64,000 nucleotides of DNA, taken from the NCBI GenBank assembly GCA_018897295.1, contig JAHILA010000009.1:3154-67153 (forward strand), given 5' to 3'. Below, in pieces: positions 22,574 to 47,760 of this stretch. Each line of letters opens with the position of its first letter. Positions within the stretch are counted from its first letter, which is position 1. Under the pieces are notes generated by a model, which saw nothing but the letters and a program-made list of their open reading frames with translations, made no database searches and was not told the origin of the DNA. Source of the stretch: Patescibacteria group bacterium. Its GTDB lineage: Bacteria; Patescibacteriota; Minisyncoccia; RBG-13-40-8-A. Both the position numbers and the translations under genes were made by a program.

Positions 22574-24256
22574 TTATTTTTTATTTAAAAAATCCGATAT
22601 TTTTTGGAGGATTTCATTAGGTTTACAATTTTGCTTTATCCATTTTTTTGCTTTTTGTTCATTCATCGATTCATCATCATATAATCCTAACACTTTTTTT
22701 GCTAATTCTTCGTTAACCCTGTAAAAAGCTTCAAGGTCTTTAATTTTAACGCTACCGGTTTTAAAATTAAACTCAATTATTCCCTTTTCAAACATTTCAT
22801 TCAGAGTATAAATTCCTGCGGAATAATAAGGATCTTTTTCAGAACTATCAAATAGATATTCTAAAGAAGTTTCTATTGTCGCTACTGCCCATTCCTCTTT
22901 CGTTCCACCAATGCCGCCTTTTTCAATTATTCGCGGAAGCAACCACCTGTAAACTTGCTCTGCTGCTAGTTCATCAATAACCATATTATTTTCTGCGCCC
23001 ATTCTTATAACACCTGGATCGTCTGGTTTATGAAAATGGCCGAATTCGTGAAATCCGGTGAGAAAAAATGATTTTTCTAAATTATATGGTTCTCCAGAGT
23101 TTTCAACTTTAAAATTTTTATCTTTAGCCATTTTGTTGAAAAATTTTGCATGTTCGCCAAGATAAATAACAGCCGTAGACTCGTCCTCTTGCGCAATTCC
23201 TTTCATGAATAAATTAACACCATAATCACCAATAGAATTAACGAATTTAACTTTTTTCCCTACGGTATGATATCCCTCTTCTTCAAGACATTCTGCCATG
23301 ATTTTTTGACTATATGAAATATCTTTTTCTCTTTGAATATTTTCTTGGTCTTGGATTTTTAAACAAATTCTCAATTCCGGATCATGGTAAGGCGGCTTTA
23401 AATATCCCGATTCATATGAAGATGGAACTATTAAAATGGGAAAGTCGGATAGAATAGATTTACCGTAAAGTTCAACAACCTCTTCGTGGCGTTTATCTAT
23501 TTTATTAACATCTCGTTCATTATAAAAATTAATTAAAGCTTTTATATAATCTTTAAAAATATTTCCTCCCTGTATTTTTTCCCAATTTATCGGCATTTGT
23601 AAAATTTCTTCAAATTTTCTAGAAATATACTGAGTATCTTTGGGAAATAATTCATTAATGGTGTGTAGTTGTTTATCGTCCGGTAAATAAAGACGGTTTG
23701 TAGATGTTTCTTTTGGTGGTTTCTGAGATAATCCAGAAAACGCTAAAAAACGAATAAAAAGATTATCGGTTCTCATAGAGGCATCTATTGTTTTTAAAAC
23801 TACCTCTCTTAACTCTGAATTTAATCCCAGTTTTTTAAGTTCTTCTTCTTCAGCACTAGATATTATCTCTTGGTAAATTTTTGTTTCTATATGCTTAACA
23901 ACATGTGCAGCAATAGCTATTAAAACTTCTCTTCTCTGACCCCTTATCTCCGGCATGCTCTCTGGCCAATTATTTACAATTGCATCAATTATTTTTTCGT
24001 TCGGAAGTTTCTCCATAGAGAGTGTCTCATTTTTGAAAGAAATTACTTTATCGTTTATATGTTCTGATACAAGTTTCTGGACATTATTAAAAAGCTCTAA
24101 AGAATTTTCCCACTTCCCGATTTTTTCGGGTATGTTTTTCTTAAAATCAATATAACCCTCAAGCAATCCGAGTGTATTATAAATATTTTTGAGTTTTGGT
24201 TTCGACTCAATTAATTTTTCTTGTTTTGCTTCTATTTTCGGTTCTTTTTCTATCAT
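22574..24256 (-). CDS. Hypothetical protein with HEXXH zincin-like motif
   Basis: FHEFGH motif. No other recognisable domains. 560 aa. Confidence 0.4.
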   Translation of the reverse strand: MIEKEPKIEAKQEKLIESKPKLKNIYNTLGLLEGYIDFKKNIPEKIGKWENSLELFNNVQKLVSEHINDKVISFKNETLSMEKLPNEKIIDAIVNNWPESMPEIRGQRREVLIAIAAHVVKHIETKIYQEIISSAEEEELKKLGLNSELREVVLKTIDASMRTDNLFIRFLAFSGLSQKPPKETSTNRLYLPDDKQLHTINELFPKDTQYISRKFEEILQMPINWEKIQGGNIFKDYIKALINFYNERDVNKIDKRHEEVVELYGKSILSDFPILIVPSSYESGYLKPPYHDPELRICLKIQDQENIQREKDISYSQKIMAECLEEEGYHTVGKKVKFVNSIGDYGVNLFMKGIAQEDESTAVIYLGEHAKFFNKMAKDKNFKVENSGEPYNLEKSFFLTGFHEFGHFHKPDDPGVIRMGAENNMVIDELAAEQVYRWLLPRIIEKGGIGGTKEEWAVATIETSLEYLFDSSEKDPYYSAGIYTLNEMFEKGIIEFNFKTGSVKIKDLEAFYRVNEELAKKVLGLYDDESMNEQKAKKWIKQNCKPNEILQKISDFLNKK

Positions 24257-25758: not shown

Positions 25759-25803
25759 TTATCCACAGAACAACCTTGACATTAATCTTTTTGATGATAT
25801 ACT
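25759..25803 (+). promoter_or_regulatory. Sigma70-type promoter (TTGACA-N16-TATACT) preceded by a DnaA-box 9-mer TTATCCACA
   Basis: TTATCCACA at 25759-25767. TTGACA at 25776-25781. TATACT at 25798-25803. Confidence 0.55.
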
Positions 25804-25887
25804 GATAATGCAGTCGCAAGATTGCCCTGCTCGCGGATGCGAGTCCGAGATTTAAACTTCGCCTTTCAAAGGCGAGGTTTTGTTTTT
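25804..25887 (+). ncRNA. Candidate small RNA of about 80 nt with its own promoter and intrinsic terminator (it also contains a 15-codon ORF MQSQDCPARGCESEI)
   Basis: The promoter sits immediately upstream. GC-rich hairpins (CTCGC-GGAT-GCGAG, CGCCTTT..AAAGGCG) are followed by GGTTTTGTTTTT. The element is convergent with the NYN gene, whose stop codon lies inside the terminator stem. Confidence 0.4.
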
Positions 25888-26516
25888 ATAAAAGTAATGC
25901 TCTTTTTTACTCTTTGAGCATTAATATTTAAATCTGCTCTTTCTTTGAGATAATGCGTGATATATCCAGCACTAAATAAAATCACCTTTTTCCCTTTTCT
26001 TCTTAAAAAATTTAACAAATAAGCAAAATCTGCATCACTAGAAAATAAACAAAACGTATCATAATCATTCAGAAATCTTATTGCATCAATACAAATTTCA
26101 GTGTCAAAATTACACTTTGGAATATAAATATATCTACCTTTATTATCTTGACTTATATATCTTGTTGTATTTTTTTCTTCTAAAGAGTCTAAATAATGTT
26201 TAATTCTTTGAATTGGTTTAGTAACTGTTTTATTAAAATATTGTCTCGCCTTACTAATAATTTTAATAGATTTTGGGTTTTTTGGATCCAAACCGAAATA
26301 AAATCTTTTATGTTCTGAAAATAAATTTATAAAACTTGCTAATTTTTCTATATCAACTACTAATTTTTTATCTTGCGGTAAAATATTGTCATCACCATCT
26401 CTCTCGTCTCTCTCATACCAATAATTTACGTTCCCAAAATCAACAAAACTATAAATCTTGCCAAATTTATTTTTATCTATTTTTAAGTTTTCTAACTTAA
26501 ACTCTTGTAAGTCCAT
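25866..26516 (-). CDS. NYN-domain (LabA/DUF88-like) protein
   Basis: VDFGNV ... FCLFSSDADF ... KVILFS motifs typical of NYN/LabA. Confidence 0.6.
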   Translation of the reverse strand: MDLQEFKLENLKIDKNKFGKIYSFVDFGNVNYWYERDERDGDDNILPQDKKLVVDIEKLASFINLFSEHKRFYFGLDPKNPKSIKIISKARQYFNKTVTKPIQRIKHYLDSLEEKNTTRYISQDNKGRYIYIPKCNFDTEICIDAIRFLNDYDTFCLFSSDADFAYLLNFLRRKGKKVILFSAGYITHYLKERADLNINAQRVKKSITFIKTKPRL

Positions 26517-34167: not shown

Positions 34168-36837
34168 TCATTTTGAATTCTCAATAATTTTAATCTCTTC
34201 CGGGGTTAAACCGTAAAGTTTATAAACCTTCTCATCAATAATTTTATCGGTTTTTTCGATTTCTGATTTAATTTTTTCCCATTTATCAGAATTTTTAGTT
34301 GTTTTTCGGAGTTCTTTATTCAGTAAAATCATTTTATCGGCCAGTTCAATAAAAGGTTTCTGTTGAATATGAGATAATATTTTAATTGGTAACTTATCTA
34401 AATTCCTTCTTTTTATATAGGGAAATACCTCAGGATTTGTTATAAAAAATTTATTATAAATATAAGTAAAAAGTTTTGAATTTAATAAGGATAGTAAATA
34501 CTCTTCTAAATATTTTTTATCTTTAACAATGATATTATATAATGATTGAATGGTAAAAAATTGATTTTTATCAATACACGCAACAAGATTGCTACCAGTT
34601 TTTCTTAAAAGAATTTTCTTTTTAGACAAATAAATGCTTTCTTTGTCATTACTATGAATTTTTGATTTATCAAAATTAACGAAATTACCACGATCAAAAT
34701 ATATCCAACTATCAATATCCTTACCGCTTAAAACGGGTTTACTGTTTTTAAAAATTGGGTTATTTGCAATCATTTCTTTTTGGCCACCAGTCATAATCCC
34801 AATATAGTTTAAGGCAATCTTTCCTAATTCAATAGAATCAATTCTCATTTTATTCAAAATTTGTTCAGCAATAATATTGCCTGGAAAATTAAAAACATAT
34901 TTTTCATTTTGCAAATAAATATCCTGACTTAAATGTTTTTGATTATTCTCGTTGAATAAATCGTCAAATAATATTAAATTCCCTTTATTGTTTTTATTCT
35001 TTTCAAAAACAAAAATAACGCTATCAACAATAACACCACCGAATACATTTGGAGGTAATTTATTAAATAATTTTATTTTAGTATTGTCTAACAAAAATTT
35101 TCTGATTTTCAAAGAATAGAAATTGGCCAAAAAATTCCAGGGCGTGATAAAAGCAATTAATCCATATTCTTTTGATATTTTTAATGCTTTTTCAATAAAT
35201 AAAACATATAAATCTAATTTGTCATAAGCGGATTCAAAATTTTCAATATAAAATTTCTTTACATTTTCAGAAATTTTTCCATATTTACTGGTAACATATG
35301 GCGGATTCCCAATAATTACATCAAACCCTCCTTGCTTAAAAACCTCAGGAAATTTCTCCTGCCAATTAAACGGATTTTTATCGCGAAAATTTTTGCCAAA
35401 ATATTTTTTCAACTCCTCGTCTGTGCCCGAAATTAGCGAATTACCATTTTCGATATTTCCACTAAGATTTGGTAATTTTGTTTGACTATCAAAGGTATTT
35501 AAAAGTAAATTTAATCGTGCTAATTCAACGGCCTGCTGATCTAAATCTACTCCATAAATATTATTCGTTAAAATTTGAATTTTTAATAATCCATTTGGCT
35601 TAACTCCAAATTCAACATATTTTTTAATCACAAGATTCATCGCTGCCACTAAAAACGAACCCGAACCACAAGCAGGATCTAAAATTTTTATCTTCTGCAA
35701 ATCGCTTATGCTCCTGCATTTATTTAATATTGGACCAAGAGCATTTTCAACAATATAATCCACAATAAATTTTGGAGTATAATATATTCCTTGCTCTTTA
35801 CGTTTTTTAAAATTTTTATCTAAATGTTCTTCTTTTTTAGACTTTTTTAATTGGTGACCAAGATAATTTTCATAAACATTACCTAAAACATCAGCTGGAA
35901 TAATAGAAAAATCATAATCATAATAATTTTTCTTACCATATAAAATATCAATCACTTTTTCTGTTGCTCCTCCAAATTCTTCCCATTTTTCAAAGGGATG
36001 TTCATCGAAAAGATTTGAATTATATATTATGTCTAGCTCTCTAAATTTTTTAATCATTGCTTGATAAGGAGTAATCCTTCCCGCTTTATCACTGGATTTC
36101 CATTCATGAATTAACGGCACTAAGGTTGGCGGTTCAATTTTTCTATCTTCGGCGCAACGAATAAAAATTAAACGATTAAGTAATTTTTGCACACCCTCAT
36201 CTATAAGATGTGAATCAATTCTTTTATCGTTCCACTGCAAAAATGCTGTAGTTAAAATTTCTCGACACTCATTTAAATCCTTAGATAATGTCTCAGTAAC
36301 TGATATTTTTTGTAATTTTTTACCAACCCTTTCAGCTTCTTTATCTAAAATATCATCATTAAATGCTTCTTTTGATAATCGCCACAATTCATCAAAGCGA
36401 TTAAGATATTCTTTATAAGTAAAAGATAGATATTTTTTACCCGCCAAAGATTTTTCTGGAGATAAGGCATTAAAGACGATTAAACTCTCAAAATCAGTAA
36501 GTATCGCCCAAGTAACGCCCTTATTCCAAGAATAGCGAATTGCTTGTTCCGCATAATCCTCACGATTCAGATCGGCAGATATTTTCTTGGCTTCCAAATA
36601 AAATTTTATTCTACCATTTAAATAGAAACCGTAATCAACACGATTACCAGAGATATGTTCCTCTAATGTTATTTCTTCTCTATTCGAAAAATCCCAGCCC
36701 AAAGTTTCAAACAATGGCTCAATAAATCCTCTTTTGGTTTCTTCTTCGGTGTATCGCAAAACTTTCTCGGTGATTTTTTCCGCTTCATATTTTGCGATAA
36801 GTTGCTTAATTTTTTCTTTTGCTTCTCGTTTAATCAT
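34168..36837 (-). CDS. Type IIG-like single-polypeptide restriction-modification enzyme (N-terminal PD-(D/E)xK nuclease fused to an N6-adenine DNA methyltransferase)
   Basis: N-terminus resembles Type I HsdR-N / MmeI nuclease (VDYGF...LEAKK). MTase motif I DPACGSGSFLVAA and motif IV IIGNPPY. 889 aa. Confidence 0.7.
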   Translation of the reverse strand: MIKREAKEKIKQLIAKYEAEKITEKVLRYTEEETKRGFIEPLFETLGWDFSNREEITLEEHISGNRVDYGFYLNGRIKFYLEAKKISADLNREDYAEQAIRYSWNKGVTWAILTDFESLIVFNALSPEKSLAGKKYLSFTYKEYLNRFDELWRLSKEAFNDDILDKEAERVGKKLQKISVTETLSKDLNECREILTTAFLQWNDKRIDSHLIDEGVQKLLNRLIFIRCAEDRKIEPPTLVPLIHEWKSSDKAGRITPYQAMIKKFRELDIIYNSNLFDEHPFEKWEEFGGATEKVIDILYGKKNYYDYDFSIIPADVLGNVYENYLGHQLKKSKKEEHLDKNFKKRKEQGIYYTPKFIVDYIVENALGPILNKCRSISDLQKIKILDPACGSGSFLVAAMNLVIKKYVEFGVKPNGLLKIQILTNNIYGVDLDQQAVELARLNLLLNTFDSQTKLPNLSGNIENGNSLISGTDEELKKYFGKNFRDKNPFNWQEKFPEVFKQGGFDVIIGNPPYVTSKYGKISENVKKFYIENFESAYDKLDLYVLFIEKALKISKEYGLIAFITPWNFLANFYSLKIRKFLLDNTKIKLFNKLPPNVFGGVIVDSVIFVFEKNKNNKGNLILFDDLFNENNQKHLSQDIYLQNEKYVFNFPGNIIAEQILNKMRIDSIELGKIALNYIGIMTGGQKEMIANNPIFKNSKPVLSGKDIDSWIYFDRGNFVNFDKSKIHSNDKESIYLSKKKILLRKTGSNLVACIDKNQFFTIQSLYNIIVKDKKYLEEYLLSLLNSKLFTYIYNKFFITNPEVFPYIKRRNLDKLPIKILSHIQQKPFIELADKMILLNKELRKTTKNSDKWEKIKSEIEKTDKIIDEKVYKLYGLTPEEIKIIENSK

Positions 36838-37043: not shown

Positions 37044-37117
37044 TGGTACCCCCACAAGGAATCGAACCTTGGTCAATTGCTTAAAAGGCAACTGCTTTAC
37101 CATTAAGCTATGGGGGC
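37044..37117 (-). tRNA. tRNA-Lys(UUU), CCA encoded
   Basis: GCCCCCATAGCTTAATGGTAAAGCAGTTGCCTTTTAAGCAATTGACCAAGGTTCGATTCCTTGTGGGGGTACCA. Confidence 0.85.
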
Positions 37118-37170
37118 ATATTAAGTCCCGACGATTCTGTCGGGACCCCGACCACTTCGTGCGTCGGGGC
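37118..37170 (-). repeat. Duplicate of the tRNA-Lys 5' end (GCCCCCATAGC) fused to GC-rich hairpins (GTCCCGAC..GTCGGGAC, CCCCGAC..GTCGGGG)
   Basis: 12-nt copy of the tRNA 5' acceptor/D region, followed by two perfect 7-8 bp GC hairpins. Confidence 0.5.
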
Positions 37171-37221
37171 TATGGGGGCGTATTTAAAATAATAGATTTT
37201 AAAAAGCATTTAGTCAACTTA

Positions 37222-37413
37222 TGCGCGTGGGAGGACTCGAACCCCCAACCGTCTCCTTAAGAGGGAGCTGCCCCGCCCGCCTTGCTTCGCCGATTATATG
37301 CGCCCACCAGGACTCGAACCTGGGACAATCTCCTTAAGAGGGAGCTGCTCTACCAACTGAGCTATGGGCGCGTCAAGGCGAAGCGGGCAGGTCTACCATT
37401 GAGCTACACGCGC
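37222..37413 (-). tRNA. Interrupted tRNA-Lys(CUU): 5' part 37392-37413 and 3' part 37222-37271, separated by a 120-nt intervening segment that contains another tRNA
   Basis: The joined halves give a canonical 72-nt tRNA (GCGCGTG-TA-GCTC-AATGGTA-GAGC-A-GCTCC-CTCTTAA-GGAGA-CGGTT-GGGGG-TTCGAGT-CCTCC-CACGCGC-A) with a 7/7 acceptor pairing. The intervening segment begins and ends with complementary GC-rich arms. Confidence 0.55.
37299..37371 (-). tRNA. tRNA-Lys(CUU), intact, nested inside the interrupted copy
   Basis: GCGCCCATAGCTCAGTTGGTAGAGCAGCTCCCTCTTAAGGAGATTGTCCCAGGTTCGAGTCCTGGTGGGCGCA. Confidence 0.85.
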
Positions 37414-37441
37414 GCTTTTCAGTTAACCGAGTTTGACTCGG

Positions 37442-37513
37442 TGCCCTCGGCAGGATTCGAACCCGCAACTACGCGTCCGAAGCGCGTCGTGTTATCCGTT
37501 ATACCACGAGGGC
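37442..37513 (-). tRNA. tRNA-Arg(UCG)
   Basis: GCCCTCGTGGTATAACGGATAACACGACGCGCTTCGGACGCGTAGTTGCGGGTTCGAATCCTGCCGAGGGCA. Confidence 0.8.
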
Positions 37514-37770
37514 GACATTTTTATGTATCCGTCCGAAATTATCTTTTCTACATAATCTTTTCTTTTTAATTTTTTCAACCTTTGTTCTATCCATCTGGCA
37601 GTTTTTAAATTTGCGTATTCTTGCGAAAAAACTAATACAGGATTTTCCATCCGATTAGTAGTTTGAGTGTAGCCATGATCATGTTGTTTTATTCTTCTTA
37701 TTAAATTACTCGTGCTACCAATATAGAATTTATTATTTTCATCTTTAAGTATATAAACGTATGCTTTCAT
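37492..37770 (-). CDS. GIY-YIG nuclease family protein (YhbQ-like). The annotated 3' end overlaps tRNA-Arg by ~22 nt.
   Basis: YVYILKDENNKFYIGSTSNLIRRIKQH GIY-YIG motif. 92 aa. Confidence 0.6.
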   Translation of the reverse strand: MKAYVYILKDENNKFYIGSTSNLIRRIKQHDHGYTQTTNRMENPVLVFSQEYANLKTARWIEQRLKKLKRKDYVEKIISDGYIKMSPSWYNG

Positions 37771-38249: not shown

Positions 38250-39404
38250 TCAAAATCCAATCAGATAATAAAATCCCAGCCCGAATAAAACGATTGCTTC
38301 AATTAGATTTAACCATGTCATTGCTTTACTTGAAGCAATTTTAATGTTCATTGTAAAAACAGCAATCAAGAAAACAATAATCTCATCAATCATGTAAAAC
38401 AATAAATATAGCGCTATGTAAAAAATATATGCCCCAACTGAAACTTGCGCTTTCGCCAACAGCCCGGCAAAAAGAACAGGAATAATAGCCGAACAAGGAA
38501 ACTCAACAATTGTAATCACAATTGCAAAAATAAAAATACTTATTAAAATTGCCCATAATCCCCGAGACTCCTTGAAACTTTTTTGTATTTTTGAAGAAAA
38601 TTTATTTACCAAGCCATTGTTGTTCATATCACAAGCTGGCCCGTATTTCCTGTATTTTAAAAATTGTTTTAAGAAATAAATCCCGCCCATAATCCCCAAG
38701 ACGCCGACAAAAATATTCATTATTTTCAAATAAGGGCCAAGAAAATAAAACAATTGATACCATAAACCGATTAAAATCCCATAAACAATAGTTGTAGTCA
38801 AAATAAAAGTTCCGCCAAAAAACAAAATCTTCTTTCTGGAACGCAAAATTATAACCAATCCCAGAATCAAGACCAACGCGCCCAGAGAACAAATATTAAA
38901 TCCGTCAAAAAAACCCAGAATTGTCGCCTGCATCAATAAAGAATATTTGCTCAAATCCACTTTGCCAATAATCGGTAAGCTTATCTTTCTCTTGTCCGTC
39001 AAAGTCCCATTTGATGGGACAAAGGAGGATAATTGTTTTTTTATCGAGTCCTCAATTTGTTTTCCAATCCCATTCTCATTATCAAATCCAGGAAAAAATT
39101 CATCGCCAACAAAAGTTAATGGAACCAAACCAATATATTGCTCCAAATTATATTTATTGCAAAGATCAATTAATTCTTTACGGCAATTTGCTTGCGAAAT
39201 TAGATGACGATTAAATTTCACATCAGGGTATTCGGGTTCAATTTTATCCAAAAATGTATTTTCTGCTTTGCAATGAAGACAGGTTTCTGAATAGAAAAAA
39301 TTTACTTCCAGTTTTGGTGTGTTGGTCTGCGCTTTCGCAAGAACAGGAAGTACAAGCAATACTCCTATTAAAACCAAAGTAGCTGAAAACAATATTTTCC
39401 TCAT
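38250..39404 (-). CDS. Membrane protein: thioredoxin-like CxxC domain fused to a polytopic DsbD/CcdA-like transmembrane domain
   Basis: Signal/TM helix, CLHC motif, then at least 6 TM helices. Confidence 0.5.
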   Translation of the reverse strand: MRKILFSATLVLIGVLLVLPVLAKAQTNTPKLEVNFFYSETCLHCKAENTFLDKIEPEYPDVKFNRHLISQANCRKELIDLCNKYNLEQYIGLVPLTFVGDEFFPGFDNENGIGKQIEDSIKKQLSSFVPSNGTLTDKRKISLPIIGKVDLSKYSLLMQATILGFFDGFNICSLGALVLILGLVIILRSRKKILFFGGTFILTTTIVYGILIGLWYQLFYFLGPYLKIMNIFVGVLGIMGGIYFLKQFLKYRKYGPACDMNNNGLVNKFSSKIQKSFKESRGLWAILISIFIFAIVITIVEFPCSAIIPVLFAGLLAKAQVSVGAYIFYIALYLLFYMIDEIIVFLIAVFTMNIKIASSKAMTWLNLIEAIVLFGLGFYYLIGF

Positions 39405-39450
39405 ACTTTTTATACTACACCAGATTTAAAAATATTTCCAATTTTAAAAG

Positions 39451-39499
39451 TTATCCACAGAAACCAACATTGACTTTCAGTTTTCTTTCGGTATATAAT
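39451..39499 (+). promoter_or_regulatory. Promoter (TTGACT-N18-TATAAT) preceded by DnaA-box 9-mer TTATCCACA
   Basis: TTATCCACA at 39451-39459. TTGACT at 39470-39475. TATAAT at 39494-39499. Confidence 0.5.
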
Positions 39500-39510
39500 T
39501 ATATTAAGAT

Positions 39511-40962
39511 ATGCTTACAAAAAAACAACAGCAAATATTGGAATATATTAAAAAATGCATAAAGAAAAATAACTACTCTCCTTCTCTTAAAGAAATAGCG
39601 AGACATTTTAAATTATCTTCTGCATCGGGCATTCATCAACACGTTGAAGCATTAAAATTAAAAGGGTATTTGAATAAATTTGAAAACCACCCACGAACAA
39701 TTCAAATTGAAAAACATGAAAGAATGATTAATATTCCAATATTGGGATTAATTGCAGCAGGACAACCGATAGAAGCAATTGAGGATAAAGAAACAATCGC
39801 CATTCCACAAAACAAAATTCCTCATTCCGGAAAATTTTACGCATTACGCGTAACCGGAAACAGTATGATTGACGAAAATATAAATGACAACGACATTATC
39901 TTGGTTAAACAACAAAATGTAGCCGAAAATGGACAAAAGATAGTGGGACTCATTGATAACAACGAAGCAACGTTAAAAAAATTCTATAAAGAAAAAAACT
40001 ATATTCGACTACAGCCAGCTAATAAAAATATGAGTCCGATTATTATTAATAAAAATCAAAATTTTAATATTCAAGGAGTAGTTGTTGATGTAATAAAAAA
40101 CGAACAAGATTTAACAGCCACTGAAACATTGCCAATTTCAAAAATTCAACAATACGACACATTGCCATTAAATGAAATTATTTGCGGTGATTGTGTTAAT
40201 GTCTTAAAAAAAATACCAGATAATTCAATTGATATGGTAATTACATCCCCCCCTTACGATAATGTTCGAACATATAATGGATTTAGTTTTAATTTACACG
40301 ACACGGGTAAAGAATTATTTCGCGTTCTTAAAGATGGCGGAATCGTAGCAATGGTTATACAAGATCAGACAAAAAACTTTGGTAAATCGCTCACGTCATT
40401 CAAGACCATTGTTGACTGGGTTGATAATATCGGATTTAAGCTTTTCGAGACTGTTATATATAAAAAACACGGCGCCGAAGGCGCGTGGTGGACAAAAAGA
40501 TTTCGAGTTGATCATGAATACATCCCTATTTTTCTTAAAGGAGAACGCCCGGCATATTTTAATAAAGAACCACTTAAAATTCCATCCAAACACGGAGGCA
40601 AAACCATGACCGGATGTGCTACACGACTAACTAATGGCAAAACATTAAAATCAAAAAAGGTCTTTATTAATCCAATGAAATGCAGGGGAACATTATGGGA
40701 TTATACTACATGTGGCGATGGCACTAAATTAAAACACCAACATCCTGCGACGTTTCCAGATAAAATTCCCTATGATCTTATACAATGTTTTTGTCCATTA
40801 AATGGCGTGGTATTGGATCCATTTGTGGGAAGTGGCACATCTGTATTGGCAGCCATCCAATTGAATAAAAATTATATTGGAATTGATATCTCTAAAGAAT
40901 ATTGTGATTTAACCAAAAAAAGAATCAAAGAAGAGGGATCAATTAATAGAAAATTATTTTAA
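39511..40962 (+). CDS. LexA-like repressor (winged HTH plus S24 peptidase) fused to a beta-class N6A/N4C DNA methyltransferase
   Basis: N-terminal ~200 aa carry a LexA-type HTH and S24 motifs (GNSM ... ILVKQQ). C-terminus carries ITSPPYDN (motif IV) before DPFVGSGTS (motif I). Confidence 0.65.
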   Translation: MLTKKQQQILEYIKKCIKKNNYSPSLKEIARHFKLSSASGIHQHVEALKLKGYLNKFENHPRTIQIEKHERMINIPILGLIAAGQPIEAIEDKETIAIPQNKIPHSGKFYALRVTGNSMIDENINDNDIILVKQQNVAENGQKIVGLIDNNEATLKKFYKEKNYIRLQPANKNMSPIIINKNQNFNIQGVVVDVIKNEQDLTATETLPISKIQQYDTLPLNEIICGDCVNVLKKIPDNSIDMVITSPPYDNVRTYNGFSFNLHDTGKELFRVLKDGGIVAMVIQDQTKNFGKSLTSFKTIVDWVDNIGFKLFETVIYKKHGAEGAWWTKRFRVDHEYIPIFLKGERPAYFNKEPLKIPSKHGGKTMTGCATRLTNGKTLKSKKVFINPMKCRGTLWDYTTCGDGTKLKHQHPATFPDKIPYDLIQCFCPLNGVVLDPFVGSGTSVLAAIQLNKNYIGIDISKEYCDLTKKRIKEEGSINRKLF

Positions 40963-41943
40963 TAATTTTCTATTGTCAATAGTATATTCTATCGCCAATC
41001 CACTAGTCATCGCCCAAGACAATGGATTTTTTTTAATCATAAATTCAAAATTTCTATTATTGGGCACAATATTTTCTTTTGTAAATTTATAAGTTTTAAA
41101 ATTAGACCATTGCCAATTTTTTGATACATATGTCCATTTTGTTAATTTAGACAACATTTTTAAAAATCTTTCCGACTTCTGTTTTTCTTCATCATTAATA
41201 CTGTAATAATTTTTCATTTTTATTATATTAACGAATTCCCCTTTAGAATTGGATATTTTGATTTTGTCGTTTCTTTTCTTGTTTTCACTTATATCACTAA
41301 TCTCAAGAAAAAAATCTTTTAACGCAATCATTAAATTGTGTATAGAGTAATGTTTATTCAAAAAGATTTTATTCAATTCATTTTCCCTTGATTCTGCGTT
41401 TAAATATTTTAACCAATCGATACAATTTTCCGGATATCCAAATAAATTTTTAAATACGCCATCCACATATAATAATGGACAAATTGCTGATTCGGGAATA
41501 GTAAATTTCTTTTTTGATCCTATTATTCCAATAAGCATATGTATTGTGGCTAATGGATATTTTAATTTAAAATTTTTATATCCATCATAATTTCTTAAAT
41601 TATTGGGTTGTATACAATTTTTAAAATTATCCCAATTTAATGGTCGTTTATTTTTATTAAATTGAACCATGTGATGCCCGATGCTTCGTATATTTTTTCT
41701 GAAAATTTCCATATCCAAAAATATGCAATCTCTAACGGAAATATTGTTATCCAACAACATCACTTTTCCGTCATAAAATCCTCTTATCTTCCAACCTAAA
41801 AAATGAGACATAAATAAACCGCATAGTAAACCATCTGCGTCTGGACTCAAAATACAATCGTGATTTTTCTCTAATATCCACGGATGATCTAAAATAATTT
41901 TTCGATAATCAATTTTTTCTATCATGTTTTTATAATACATCAC
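40954..41943 (-). CDS. Hypothetical protein, a candidate cognate restriction endonuclease convergent with the methyltransferase
   Basis: ORF only. Convergent and overlapping arrangement with the MTase gene. Confidence 0.3.
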   Translation of the reverse strand: MMYYKNMIEKIDYRKIILDHPWILEKNHDCILSPDADGLLCGLFMSHFLGWKIRGFYDGKVMLLDNNISVRDCIFLDMEIFRKNIRSIGHHMVQFNKNKRPLNWDNFKNCIQPNNLRNYDGYKNFKLKYPLATIHMLIGIIGSKKKFTIPESAICPLLYVDGVFKNLFGYPENCIDWLKYLNAESRENELNKIFLNKHYSIHNLMIALKDFFLEISDISENKKRNDKIKISNSKGEFVNIIKMKNYYSINDEEKQKSERFLKMLSKLTKWTYVSKNWQWSNFKTYKFTKENIVPNNRNFEFMIKKNPLSWAMTSGLAIEYTIDNRKLLK

Positions 41944-42288: not shown

Positions 42289-42801
42289 ATGAGTATTATT
42301 AAAAATAAAGAGCAACGAGTAGGGGTGTTTATGGATGTCCAAAATATGTATCACTCGGCAAAAAATATTTACCAGGCCAGGGTGAACTTCCGTGAAATTC
42401 TGAAAACCGCAGTTGCAGGAAGAAAATTAATCAGGGCAATCGCTTATGTTGTAACCACTGAAACCGGCGAGGAGAAAGCGTTTTTAGAAGCTCTAACTAA
42501 GTCAGGAATAGAGGTGAAGAGCAAAGATTTACAGATATTCCCAGGCGGGATGAAAAAAGCGGACTGGGATGTTGGCATGGCGGTCGATGCAATTAAATTA
42601 AGCGAAAAACTGGATTGCGTTGTCTTGGTAACTGGAGATGGAGATTTTGTTCCATTGATAGAATATTTACAGGCAAACGGGCAGCAAGTAGAAGTAATTG
42701 CTTTTGAAAAAAGCGCTTCAAGCAAATTAAAGGAAACAACTGATGATTTTACTGACTTGGGCAAAAGTCCGGGGAAATATTTAATAGGAATAAGAAAATA
42801 A
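42289..42801 (+). CDS. NYN-domain (LabA-like) protein inserted between rpsO and pnp
   Basis: VGVFMDVQN ... VVLVTGDGDFVPL motifs. Confidence 0.6.
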   Translation: MSIIKNKEQRVGVFMDVQNMYHSAKNIYQARVNFREILKTAVAGRKLIRAIAYVVTTETGEEKAFLEALTKSGIEVKSKDLQIFPGGMKKADWDVGMAVDAIKLSEKLDCVVLVTGDGDFVPLIEYLQANGQQVEVIAFEKSASSKLKETTDDFTDLGKSPGKYLIGIRK

Positions 42802-45927: not shown

Positions 45928-46116
45928 AACCGGTTTACCATGAGCGAAGCGCCTTAAGCGCTGAGTCGAATGGGGATAACTTGTTTAGAACATAATCCAA
46001 AGAAAACAAATCTAGTTCATCGTCAAGGCTAAAATAAGCTAATTTTGGCTCTAAAAACAGGATGCCAAGCAAAAACCTTGATATTGACTAAATTCTAAAA
46101 ACTTATCCACAACATG

Positions 46117-47723: not shown

Positions 47724-47760
47724 TTATCCACAATATTAACTATTGACAAGTATATCATAT

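Follow-up and report, generated by a model that had tools for sequence, protein, structure and literature searches.

A 64,000-nt stretch of DNA from a Patescibacteria group bacterium (GCA_018897295.1, contig JAHILA010000009.1, positions 3,154–67,153 of the forward strand; hereafter the window, within which coordinates are counted) contains two convergent open reading frames (ORFs) that overlap by 9 nt at their 3′ ends. The first (39511–40962, plus strand) encodes a 483-aa protein in which a LexA repressor is fused to a DNA methyltransferase (MTase), and the second (40954–41943, minus strand) encodes a 329-aa protein; positions, convergence, and overlap are exactly those given in a first-pass annotation of the sequence. 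Our analysis indicates that the locus is probably a mobile two-gene cassette of the type II restriction–modification (R-M) type, whose MTase carries a complete LexA as an N-terminal regulatory head. The novelty lies in this regulatory head on a type II R-M system, together with a candidate new nuclease fold in the partner protein.

For comparison, we scanned GTDB species-representative genomes and found 294 relatives, of which 80 loci were retained; loci are denoted L followed by a number. Residue conservation was read from an alignment of 63 full-length fusion orthologues, all from GTDB representative genomes and 12 of them belonging to a second cassette class described below. Operators and DnaA boxes were sought in 615 kb of sequence from related loci.

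A LexA head on a DNA methyltransferase

The best 120 database matches to the 483-aa protein were all full-length fusions (480–501 aa; 65%–100% identical), with hosts among Falkow-, Portnoy-, Giovannoni-, Buchanan-, Pace-, and other Patescibacteria. Assemblies with the full-length fusion come from NCBI, JGI, ENA, and Logan. The first-pass annotation had allowed for a mis-assembled junction or a frameshift that joined two ORFs. This explanation is refuted by same-length fusions in >100 independent assemblies and 63 GTDB representative genomes, with hundreds of full-length orthologues in Patescibacteria; misassembly is excluded by this recurrence, no observation speaks for an artefact, and the probability we leave to one is practically nil. 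Public databases call the fusion either "transcriptional repressor LexA" or "site-specific DNA-methyltransferase." At 483 aa and with a C-terminal MTase, it is unlike stand-alone LexA of ~200 aa.

The N-terminal part is a complete LexA, and apparently a cleavable one. Pfam recognizes LexA_DNA_bind (PF01726; residues 2–63, 1e-18) and Peptidase_S24 (residues 76–192, 1e-29), and the NCBIfam lexA equivalog TIGR00498 scores 191 bits over residues 2–198 against a cutoff of 111. A PDB sequence search aligned residues 2–195 with T. maritima LexA (3k2z; 38% identical, 2e-35). An AlphaFold2 (AF2) model lays the protein out as a winged helix–turn–helix (HTH), a beta-rich S24 domain, a disordered linker (199–211), and an MTase core. 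Its overall predicted local distance difference test (pLDDT) score of 71 and predicted template modeling (pTM) score of 0.49 are in the range to be expected when domains are flexibly linked. With the head of this model, Foldseek retrieved full-length LexA structures, the S24 core aligning at target-normalized template modeling (TM) scores of 0.75–0.82.

The reading of the first ~200 aa as LexA in the first-pass annotation is thus borne out by Pfam, TIGR00498, and alignment, which together find the winged HTH, the S24 domain, the cleavage bond, and the catalytic dyad. The S24 fold in particular, for which a domain search and an AlphaFold model had been proposed as checks, was recovered by both. 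Of the 63 orthologues, 62 keep the predicted self-cleavage bond (Ala83-Gly84), 62 keep Ser118 in GNSM, and 62 keep Lys156 in ATLKKF; no part of the LexA head is better conserved than the S24 region (Table 1). The earlier annotation had correctly located the catalytic serine in GNSM but had placed the lysine in ILVKQQ. Because that position (K133) is a lysine in 35 orthologues and an arginine in 27, K133 is not the catalytic residue or general base; the catalytic lysine is K156. The recognition helix of the head reads SGIHQHVE (about aa 38–46). As a LexA-type regulator with these features, the head would be expected to be cleavable upon DNA damage.

The C-terminal half is covered by the full N6_N4_Mtase profile (PF01555; residues 240–470, 2e-37, profile positions 1–221 of 221). 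SPPY precedes FVGSGTS (FxGSG), an order that identifies the beta class, and the initial assignment to a beta-class amino-MTase with this motif order is confirmed by the Pfam match and by a motif IV present in every orthologue. PADLOC models MTase_II and oMTase matched at 2e-47, and the PDB sequence search with the 483-aa protein also returned several beta-class MTase structures. Structural neighbors in Foldseek (N4CMT, CcrM, TTHA0409, M.BceJIV, RsrI, PvuII, and MboIIA) take in both N4-cytosine and N6-adenine enzymes. SPPY is the form of motif IV typical of N4-cytosine enzymes. The palindromes GATC, TGCA, GGCC, and TCGA are depleted in the window, but this depletion is not specific to the system, and we therefore rejected palindrome avoidance as a guide to the MTase target.

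The promoter of the fusion gene

Read from its promoter sequence, the fusion mRNA is near-leaderless and without a Shine-Dalgarno sequence; in orthologues, TATAAT lies 6–11 nt before the ATG. The spacer between the −35 and −10 elements is filled by a putative operator, a direct repeat with an 11-bp period whose two units are TTTCAGT (39475–39481) and TTTCGGT (39486–39492). A direct repeat of the form (T/G)TTCNNN-N4-(T/G)TTCNNN, with the same period, was found in 58 of the 63 orthologous upstream regions, almost always between −35 and −10. When identical units were required, 42 out of 46 operator matches in the 615 kb fell at a lexA-MTase promoter (0–6 in shuffles). Operators upstream of the C-protein and nuclease genes described below, or of neighboring genes in these loci, did not exceed chance across the same 615 kb. 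A looser pattern matched the window twice, at the operator and, weakly, at 24236 inside a coding sequence, the latter being compatible with chance.

Bases 5–7 of the operator heptad covary with the LexA recognition helix. Helices of the form ST[IV]HQH (SGIHQH in the window) pair with TTTCGGT in all 11 loci that have them, the window included, and STAH[F/Y/H]H pairs with TTTC[T/G]AT. Helices with HEH, SEH, or NER pair with ..TCGGG, and those with xYY pair with TTTCTAT-ATAT. This covariation is the strongest evidence here that the LexA head binds its own promoter, and, for an operator located in the −35/−10 spacer, it argues for autorepression. The suggestion made at first pass that the protein regulates its own promoter thereby gains support at the level of sequence. 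The LexA-box-like palindrome for which a search had been advised was not seen: the region 39350–39560 holds only weak AT-rich palindromes and no LexA-type one, and the direct repeat TTTCAGT-TTTC-TTTCGGT is present instead.

A DnaA box, already noticed in the first-pass annotation as a promoter box of sequence TTATCCACA, is present upstream of the −35 element and is highly conserved at the lexA-MTase promoter. The window has five exact DnaA boxes, compared with 0.6 expected. In related loci, 52 out of 58 exact boxes fall at the lexA-MTase promoter, with ~7 expected in total by chance. The boxes occur in either orientation, 0–14 nt from the repeats, and are at times doubled, and stand-alone MTases of other phyla mostly have neither box nor repeats. 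That the box is a general promoter element was rejected for the related loci, in which only six of the 58 boxes lie elsewhere.

Candidate promoters also follow closely on three further exact DnaA boxes in the window (25759–25767, 46103–46111, and 47724–47732), all of them intergenic; in two cases a TTGAC −35 element lies ~10 nt downstream from the box. The promoter at the 25759 box faces ~100 nt with no same-strand ORF and a hairpin at the end, which may be a small RNA; no known noncoding RNA was found under this promoter, as only tRNAs reach Rfam gathering scores. The 46103 box, with an indistinct −35, precedes a Mg-chelatase/ComM-like gene, and the 47724 box precedes a Gp49/HigB-like toxin gene. 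We also noted that promoters with long leaders (L001, L005, L007, L010, L048, L066, and others) have a conserved (A/T)GTCAA 5–10 nt before the ATG. The motif repeats, in inverted orientation, TTGACTTT, which comprises the −35 element and the beginning of the operator; in L048 an antisense promoter could result.

The partner protein and a probable mobile cassette

The 329-aa protein gave a confident AF2 model (pLDDT 88.8; pTM 0.91), in which Foldseek recognized a DHH (RecJ/Cdc45/NrnA) fold. At first pass this protein had been described as devoid of recognizable motifs, a description that no longer holds. Residues D35-x-D37, D58, D77, and G89-H90-H91, found within the motifs SPDADG (33–38), D58, D77, and GHH (89–91), are invariant in the family and resemble DHH motifs I–III; they may form a DHH-type active site with its metal ligands. 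Profile and sequence searches gave no Pfam match (E ≤ 0.1), including to the DHH/DHHA1 models, and none in NCBIfam, PADLOC, PHROGs, PDB phmmer, or a PDB profile search, and no DHH protein was found in the window or the loci for profile comparison. The family has ~1,044 members, all named ones being "hypothetical protein" and none having a Pfam domain. Known restriction endonucleases (REases) use the PD-(D/E)XK, HNH, GIY-YIG, PLD, and half-pipe folds (PMC1952068, PMC2441816). By Pfam, NCBIfam, and PADLOC, and by its DHH-like model, the 329-aa protein lies outside the known REase folds and families.

Genomic context points to a nuclease. A partner homologue lies directly downstream from the MTase gene, and convergent to it, in 65 of 80 loci; these include loci of Bacteroidota, WOR-3, Kapaibacteria, and Berkelbacteria in which the MTase is 67%–78% identical to that of the window and has no LexA head. 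In 29 related loci, the gene immediately before the nuclease gene, in the same orientation, encodes a 73-aa HTH_3 C protein and is itself preceded by conserved tandem dyads (e.g., TATATCCCATTTTGGGATTATACCACAATAGGATATAT); for nuclease genes of the 329-aa type, such a C-protein gene with C-box dyads was counted in 24 loci. An HTH_3 gene and dyads before a nuclease gene are the signature of C-protein control (PMC2175313). In a second cassette class (13 loci), the same LexA head is carried by a different beta-class MTase (35%–41% identical), and a convergent Endonuclease_7/His-Me finger (HNH) nuclease replaces the DHH-like gene, with the same C protein upstream in five loci. The C-protein unit and this replacement in the sister class suggest that the 329-aa gene occupies the restriction-enzyme slot. 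Strict synteny across phyla, the C-protein/C-box operon in related loci, and a fold of a phosphoesterase/nuclease superfamily thus support the earlier proposal of a cognate REase, and we regard the 329-aa protein as a candidate restriction endonuclease.

The same protein could also be another kind of phosphoesterase (nanoRNase-, pAp-, or cyclic-nucleotide-type) or a defense effector, which would leave the MTase functionally solitary. No known REase has a DHH fold, and the DHH members characterized so far act, by the descriptions of our structural matches, on ssDNA ends, short oligonucleotides, or nucleotides. Moreover, nothing in PADLOC or the NCBIfam naming models matched the protein, which hence belongs to none of the REase families in those libraries. 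We nevertheless consider this alternative unlikely, given the strict co-occurrence with one MTase family across phyla and the convergent genes whose 3′ ends overlap, an arrangement seen in many type II systems. In addition, the C-protein/C-box unit found before genes of the 329-aa type also precedes the Endonuclease_7 nuclease of the sister cassette.

Comparison of the two classes showed that the cassette is modular. Heads are 80%–97% identical between classes, whereas the MTases are 35%–41% identical (for L072 and L023, 97% for heads and 41% for MTases; for L065 and L028, 95% and 39%). Nucleotide similarity between the classes extends from ~50 nt before the ATG, DnaA box included, to just past SPPY, and resumes across the C gene, with a substituted middle between these stretches and no relationship in the sequences that flank the cassette. 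In L088, which stems from the IMG/VR viral-contig collection, the head is combined in a third arrangement with a DLPY-type MTase and another convergent ORF. We then searched 1.8 billion cluster representatives with the head only, and nearly all relatives at least 50% identical were long proteins. Ten out of 10 sampled long relatives had LexA and S24 fused to a DNA MTase, drawn from five families: N6_N4 (beta class), N6_Mtase/Eco57I with TaqI_C, M.Eco57I-like, C5 DNA_methylase, and D12/Dam. The closest stand-alone relative (L084, 1000–2551; also L085) is a 213-aa LexA that is 64% identical to the head. In L084 it is followed 15 nt on, in an operon, by a DpnI-like methyl-directed restriction gene, and its promoter has a DnaA box, the repeat GTTCGGT-AAAT-GTTCGGT, and a second DnaA box.

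These data bear on the possibility that the protein is a genuine global SOS repressor that captured an MTase. On that view, SOS would regulate an effectively orphan or epigenetic MTase, and the repeats would be the usual LexA box of the lineage. The protein scores above the lexA equivalog cutoff and is named LexA by NCBI, and no other lexA was seen in the 64-kb window. A stand-alone LexA that is 46% identical, in a housekeeping-like context, has a similar promoter and operator (TTGAC-TTTCACC-TTTT-TGTCACC), and direct-repeat LexA boxes are established in Alphaproteobacteria (PMC8565304). On the other hand, the head travels with swapped R-M cargo between unrelated flanks, the flanking gene families differ between loci, and cassettes 65%–78% identical are scattered over distant Patescibacteria classes. 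The four strict operator copies that lie away from the fusion's own promoter match the shuffle expectation, as the window's second loose match is compatible with chance. MTases or DpnI accompany every one of the closest relatives, and in one metagenome-assembled genome (MAG) two such systems occur whose heads differ (L051 and L065). The picture of an ordinary chromosomal lexA therefore gives way to a mobile, modular cassette with shared heads, swapped MTases, and unrelated flanks. The orphan, SOS-controlled epigenetic regulator offered as an alternative at first pass is the less supported reading, and we attach little probability to a global SOS repressor. The two views are compatible, as the LexA of a cassette could double as the only LexA in a reduced genome.

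Several observations touch on how the cassettes move and assort. In about 26 of the 80 loci, a tRNA (Gln most often) or tmRNA gene lies within ~900 nt of the nuclease/C end, always on the strand of the nuclease gene, which suggests that insertion takes place beside the 3′ ends of tRNAs; we saw no integrase. In two related loci, inverted repeats of ~290 bp flank the cassette region: L023 (1838–2118 and 6763–7057) and L026 (2769–3055 and 6762–7048). The MAG with two LexA-linked R-M systems (SRP257756_co1_86) combines different heads with different cargo: one system consists of an unfused LexA-like gene, an MTase, a DHH-like gene, and C, and the other of a fused LexA-MTase, Endonuclease_7, and C.

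The neighborhood of the cassette in the window looks like a small defense island owing to a nearby type IIG enzyme. This 889-aa Eco57I/MmeI-like protein (34171–36837, minus strand), 2.7 kb upstream of the cassette, has N6_Mtase, Eco57I, and TaqI_C domains and an HSDR_N-like N terminus. A cluster of tRNA-Lys(ttt), tRNA-Lys(ctt), and tRNA-Arg(tcg) (37044–37513 and 37492–37770, minus strand) is overlapped by a 92-aa GIY-YIG-like ORF, whose family recurs near the cassette in seven loci. Genes for NYN-domain proteins (predicted RNases) are found at 25869–26516 (minus strand) and 42289–42798 (plus strand), one of them between rpsO and pnp, adjoining the cassette.

Table 1. Coordinates of the cassette features in the window
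Feature	Position	Strand	Basis or remark
Perfect DnaA box TTATCCACA	39451–39459	+	10 nt upstream of −35
−35 element TTGACT	39470–39475	+	Read from sequence; position kept in orthologous promoters
Putative operator, direct repeat TTTCAGT-TTTC-TTTCGGT, 11-bp period	39475–39492	+	Fills −35/−10 spacer
−10 element TATAAT	39494–39499	+	11 nt before ATG (39511)
LexA-MTase fusion gene, 483 aa and stop	39511–40962	+	ORF, Pfam, NCBIfam, PDB match, model
LexA winged-HTH DNA-binding domain, aa 1–65	39511–39705	+	Pfam; model helices 4–20, 26–32, 38–50 and wing
S24 peptidase/dimerization domain, aa 72–197	39724–40101	+	Pfam, conservation, Foldseek
Predicted self-cleavage bond Ala83-Gly84, codons	39757–39762	+	Aligns with E. 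coli LexA A84-G85
Catalytic-dyad codons, Ser118 and Lys156	39862–39864 and 39976–39978	+	Alignment with E. coli S119 and K156
Predicted disordered linker, aa 198–220	40102–40170	+	Lowest alignment conservation (0.48); pLDDT <50 at 199–211
Beta-class DNA amino-MTase, aa 221–483	40171–40959	+	Pfam, SPPY, structural neighbors, PADLOC
Motif IV SPPY, aa 246–249	40246–40257	+	Invariant in 63/63 orthologues
Motif I FVGSGTS, aa 438–444	40822–40842	+	Sequence motif
Partner gene, convergent; 329 aa when read from GTG 41943, with ATG 41940 or 41925 the likely start	40954–41943	−	Candidate restriction endonuclease
DHH-like N-terminal domain of the partner, about aa 10–225	41269–41916	−	Model, Foldseek, invariant residues

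A proposed circuit and its relation to known systems

We propose that a dimer formed through the LexA heads would bind the two repeats, repress transcription of its own gene, and so hold the MTase at a set point, much as the N-terminal HTH does for M.SsoII and M.Ecl18kI. RecA-ssDNA filaments, arising from damage, repair synthesis, incoming DNA, or cuts made by the partner nuclease in the host chromosome, would stimulate S24 self-cleavage at Ala83-Gly84, as known from the family. Cleavage would free the DNA-binding domain and de-repress the promoter, raising the supply of MTase as unmethylated DNA appears. Such a response would be the counterpart, on the modification side of a type II system, of damage-induced restriction alleviation. 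Through its conserved DnaA box, the promoter is probably tied to the host factor DnaA, whose binding site is near-universal, and hence to replication status; the DHH-fold 329-aa protein would act as the nuclease.

The head could instead be an autorepressor and dimerization module with no link to RecA or damage, its S24 domain serving for dimerization or for slow constitutive self-cleavage and turnover. Some intermediate gene arrangements favor this view. In L059, L064, and L068, which keep the DnaA box and operator, the MTase is fused to the LexA DNA-binding domain only, and in L050 the same MTase carries a different HTH, HTH_17. A further intermediate is the unfused LexA-like gene that accompanies the MTase in L049, L051, L052, and L061. 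HTH autoregulation that does not involve proteolysis is known for M.SsoII and M.Ecl18kI (PMC3978073, PMC2760811). Dimerization by itself would not be expected to preserve the bond and the two dyad residues in 62 of 63 fusions, or to make S24 the most conserved segment of the head, and a head restricted to dimerization seems to us improbable.

Several points weigh against a cleavable, damage-sensing head on a complete R-M cassette. Neither recA nor dnaA was found in the window or in related loci. The window copy has no C gene (the neighbor is rpsO), and no control of its nuclease gene was identified. Conservation alone points to a role for the DnaA box. The HTH-only variants would be autoregulated with no S24 domain, so that S24 might serve dimerization only. 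Finally, the cleaved S24-MTase fragment could be degraded, in which case damage would lower protection and the sign of the response would be inverted. The wiring could work either way: protection might be boosted by a feedback from self-damage, or, with degradation of the cleaved MTase, damage or phage might trigger a suicide switch. The joint claim that the 329-aa protein founds a new DHH-fold class of REases and that a Patescibacteria R-M clade uses a RecA-cleavable LexA head with a DnaA box is one that we put forward tentatively, and as more doubtful than the cassette itself.

R-M systems are known to be controlled by C proteins, simple HTH heads on the MTase, promoter methylation, and antisense RNA. 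To our knowledge, no direct input from a DNA-damage sensor has been described for type II systems. A cleavage-competent LexA on the MTase would feed DNA-damage sensing directly into the protection arm of such a system. The head is found on five MTase families and next to DpnI, in each case after a promoter with a DnaA box and direct repeat. The covariation ties single helix residues (Q, F/Y, E) to operator bases and offers a natural test of LexA specificity, and the DHH-fold partner, if it is a nuclease, would add a new fold to the restriction enzyme repertoire. Most Patescibacteria are without CRISPR and probably depend on DNA uptake, and the regulation of R-M systems therefore bears on their biology.

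In the literature searched, we met with no account of LexA-MTase fusions, of R-M promoters under the control of a DnaA box, or of restriction enzymes with a DHH fold. LexA and DnaA go unmentioned in a 2025 review of R-M biology (PMC12707154), as do LexA and fusions in a 2026 preprint on methyltransferases of the candidate phyla radiation (CPR).

With canonical LexA (E. coli; T. maritima 3k2z) the protein has in common the winged HTH and S24 domains, the Ala-Gly bond, the Ser/Lys dyad, and a putative operator over its own promoter. It differs in its fused 280-aa MTase, its place in a mobile cassette, and an operator found, in the window and the 615 kb, only at its own promoter. The operator, (T/G)TTC-N7-(T/G)TTC, is a direct repeat with the same 11-bp period as the alphaproteobacterial LexA motif, listed as GTTC-N7-GTTC (PMC8565304), and in several loci, L016 and L084 among them, it reads exactly so; here, however, each unit has three more specified bases, which change with the recognition helix. 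The DHH superfamily (RecJ, archaeal RecJ/Cdc45, NrnA, GdpP) shares no detectable sequence or profile similarity with the 329-aa protein, whose motif III is GHH and not DHH, and the R-M nuclease slot is unknown for its members.

Among R-M systems, the closest parallels are M.SsoII and M.Ecl18kI, in which an N-terminal DNA-binding domain is likewise attached by a flexible linker, with the operator placed in the promoter of the MTase gene itself (PMC3978073, PMC2760811). These are C5-MTases with a simple HTH of ~70 aa, whereas here a whole, potentially damage-destructible LexA is accompanied by a conserved DnaA box. Related cassettes share with the C-protein systems PvuII, Esp1396I, and AhdI an HTH_3 gene and C-box-like dyads before the nuclease (PMC2175313); the window copy differs in having no C gene, and its M gene is under separate, LexA-type control. 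Last, type I restriction alleviation, in which ClpXP degrades HsdR, follows the same logic of protecting new unmodified host DNA under damage (PMC12707154). There, proteolysis removes the restriction subunit, whereas the circuit proposed here would provide more modification by way of a cleavable repressor head.

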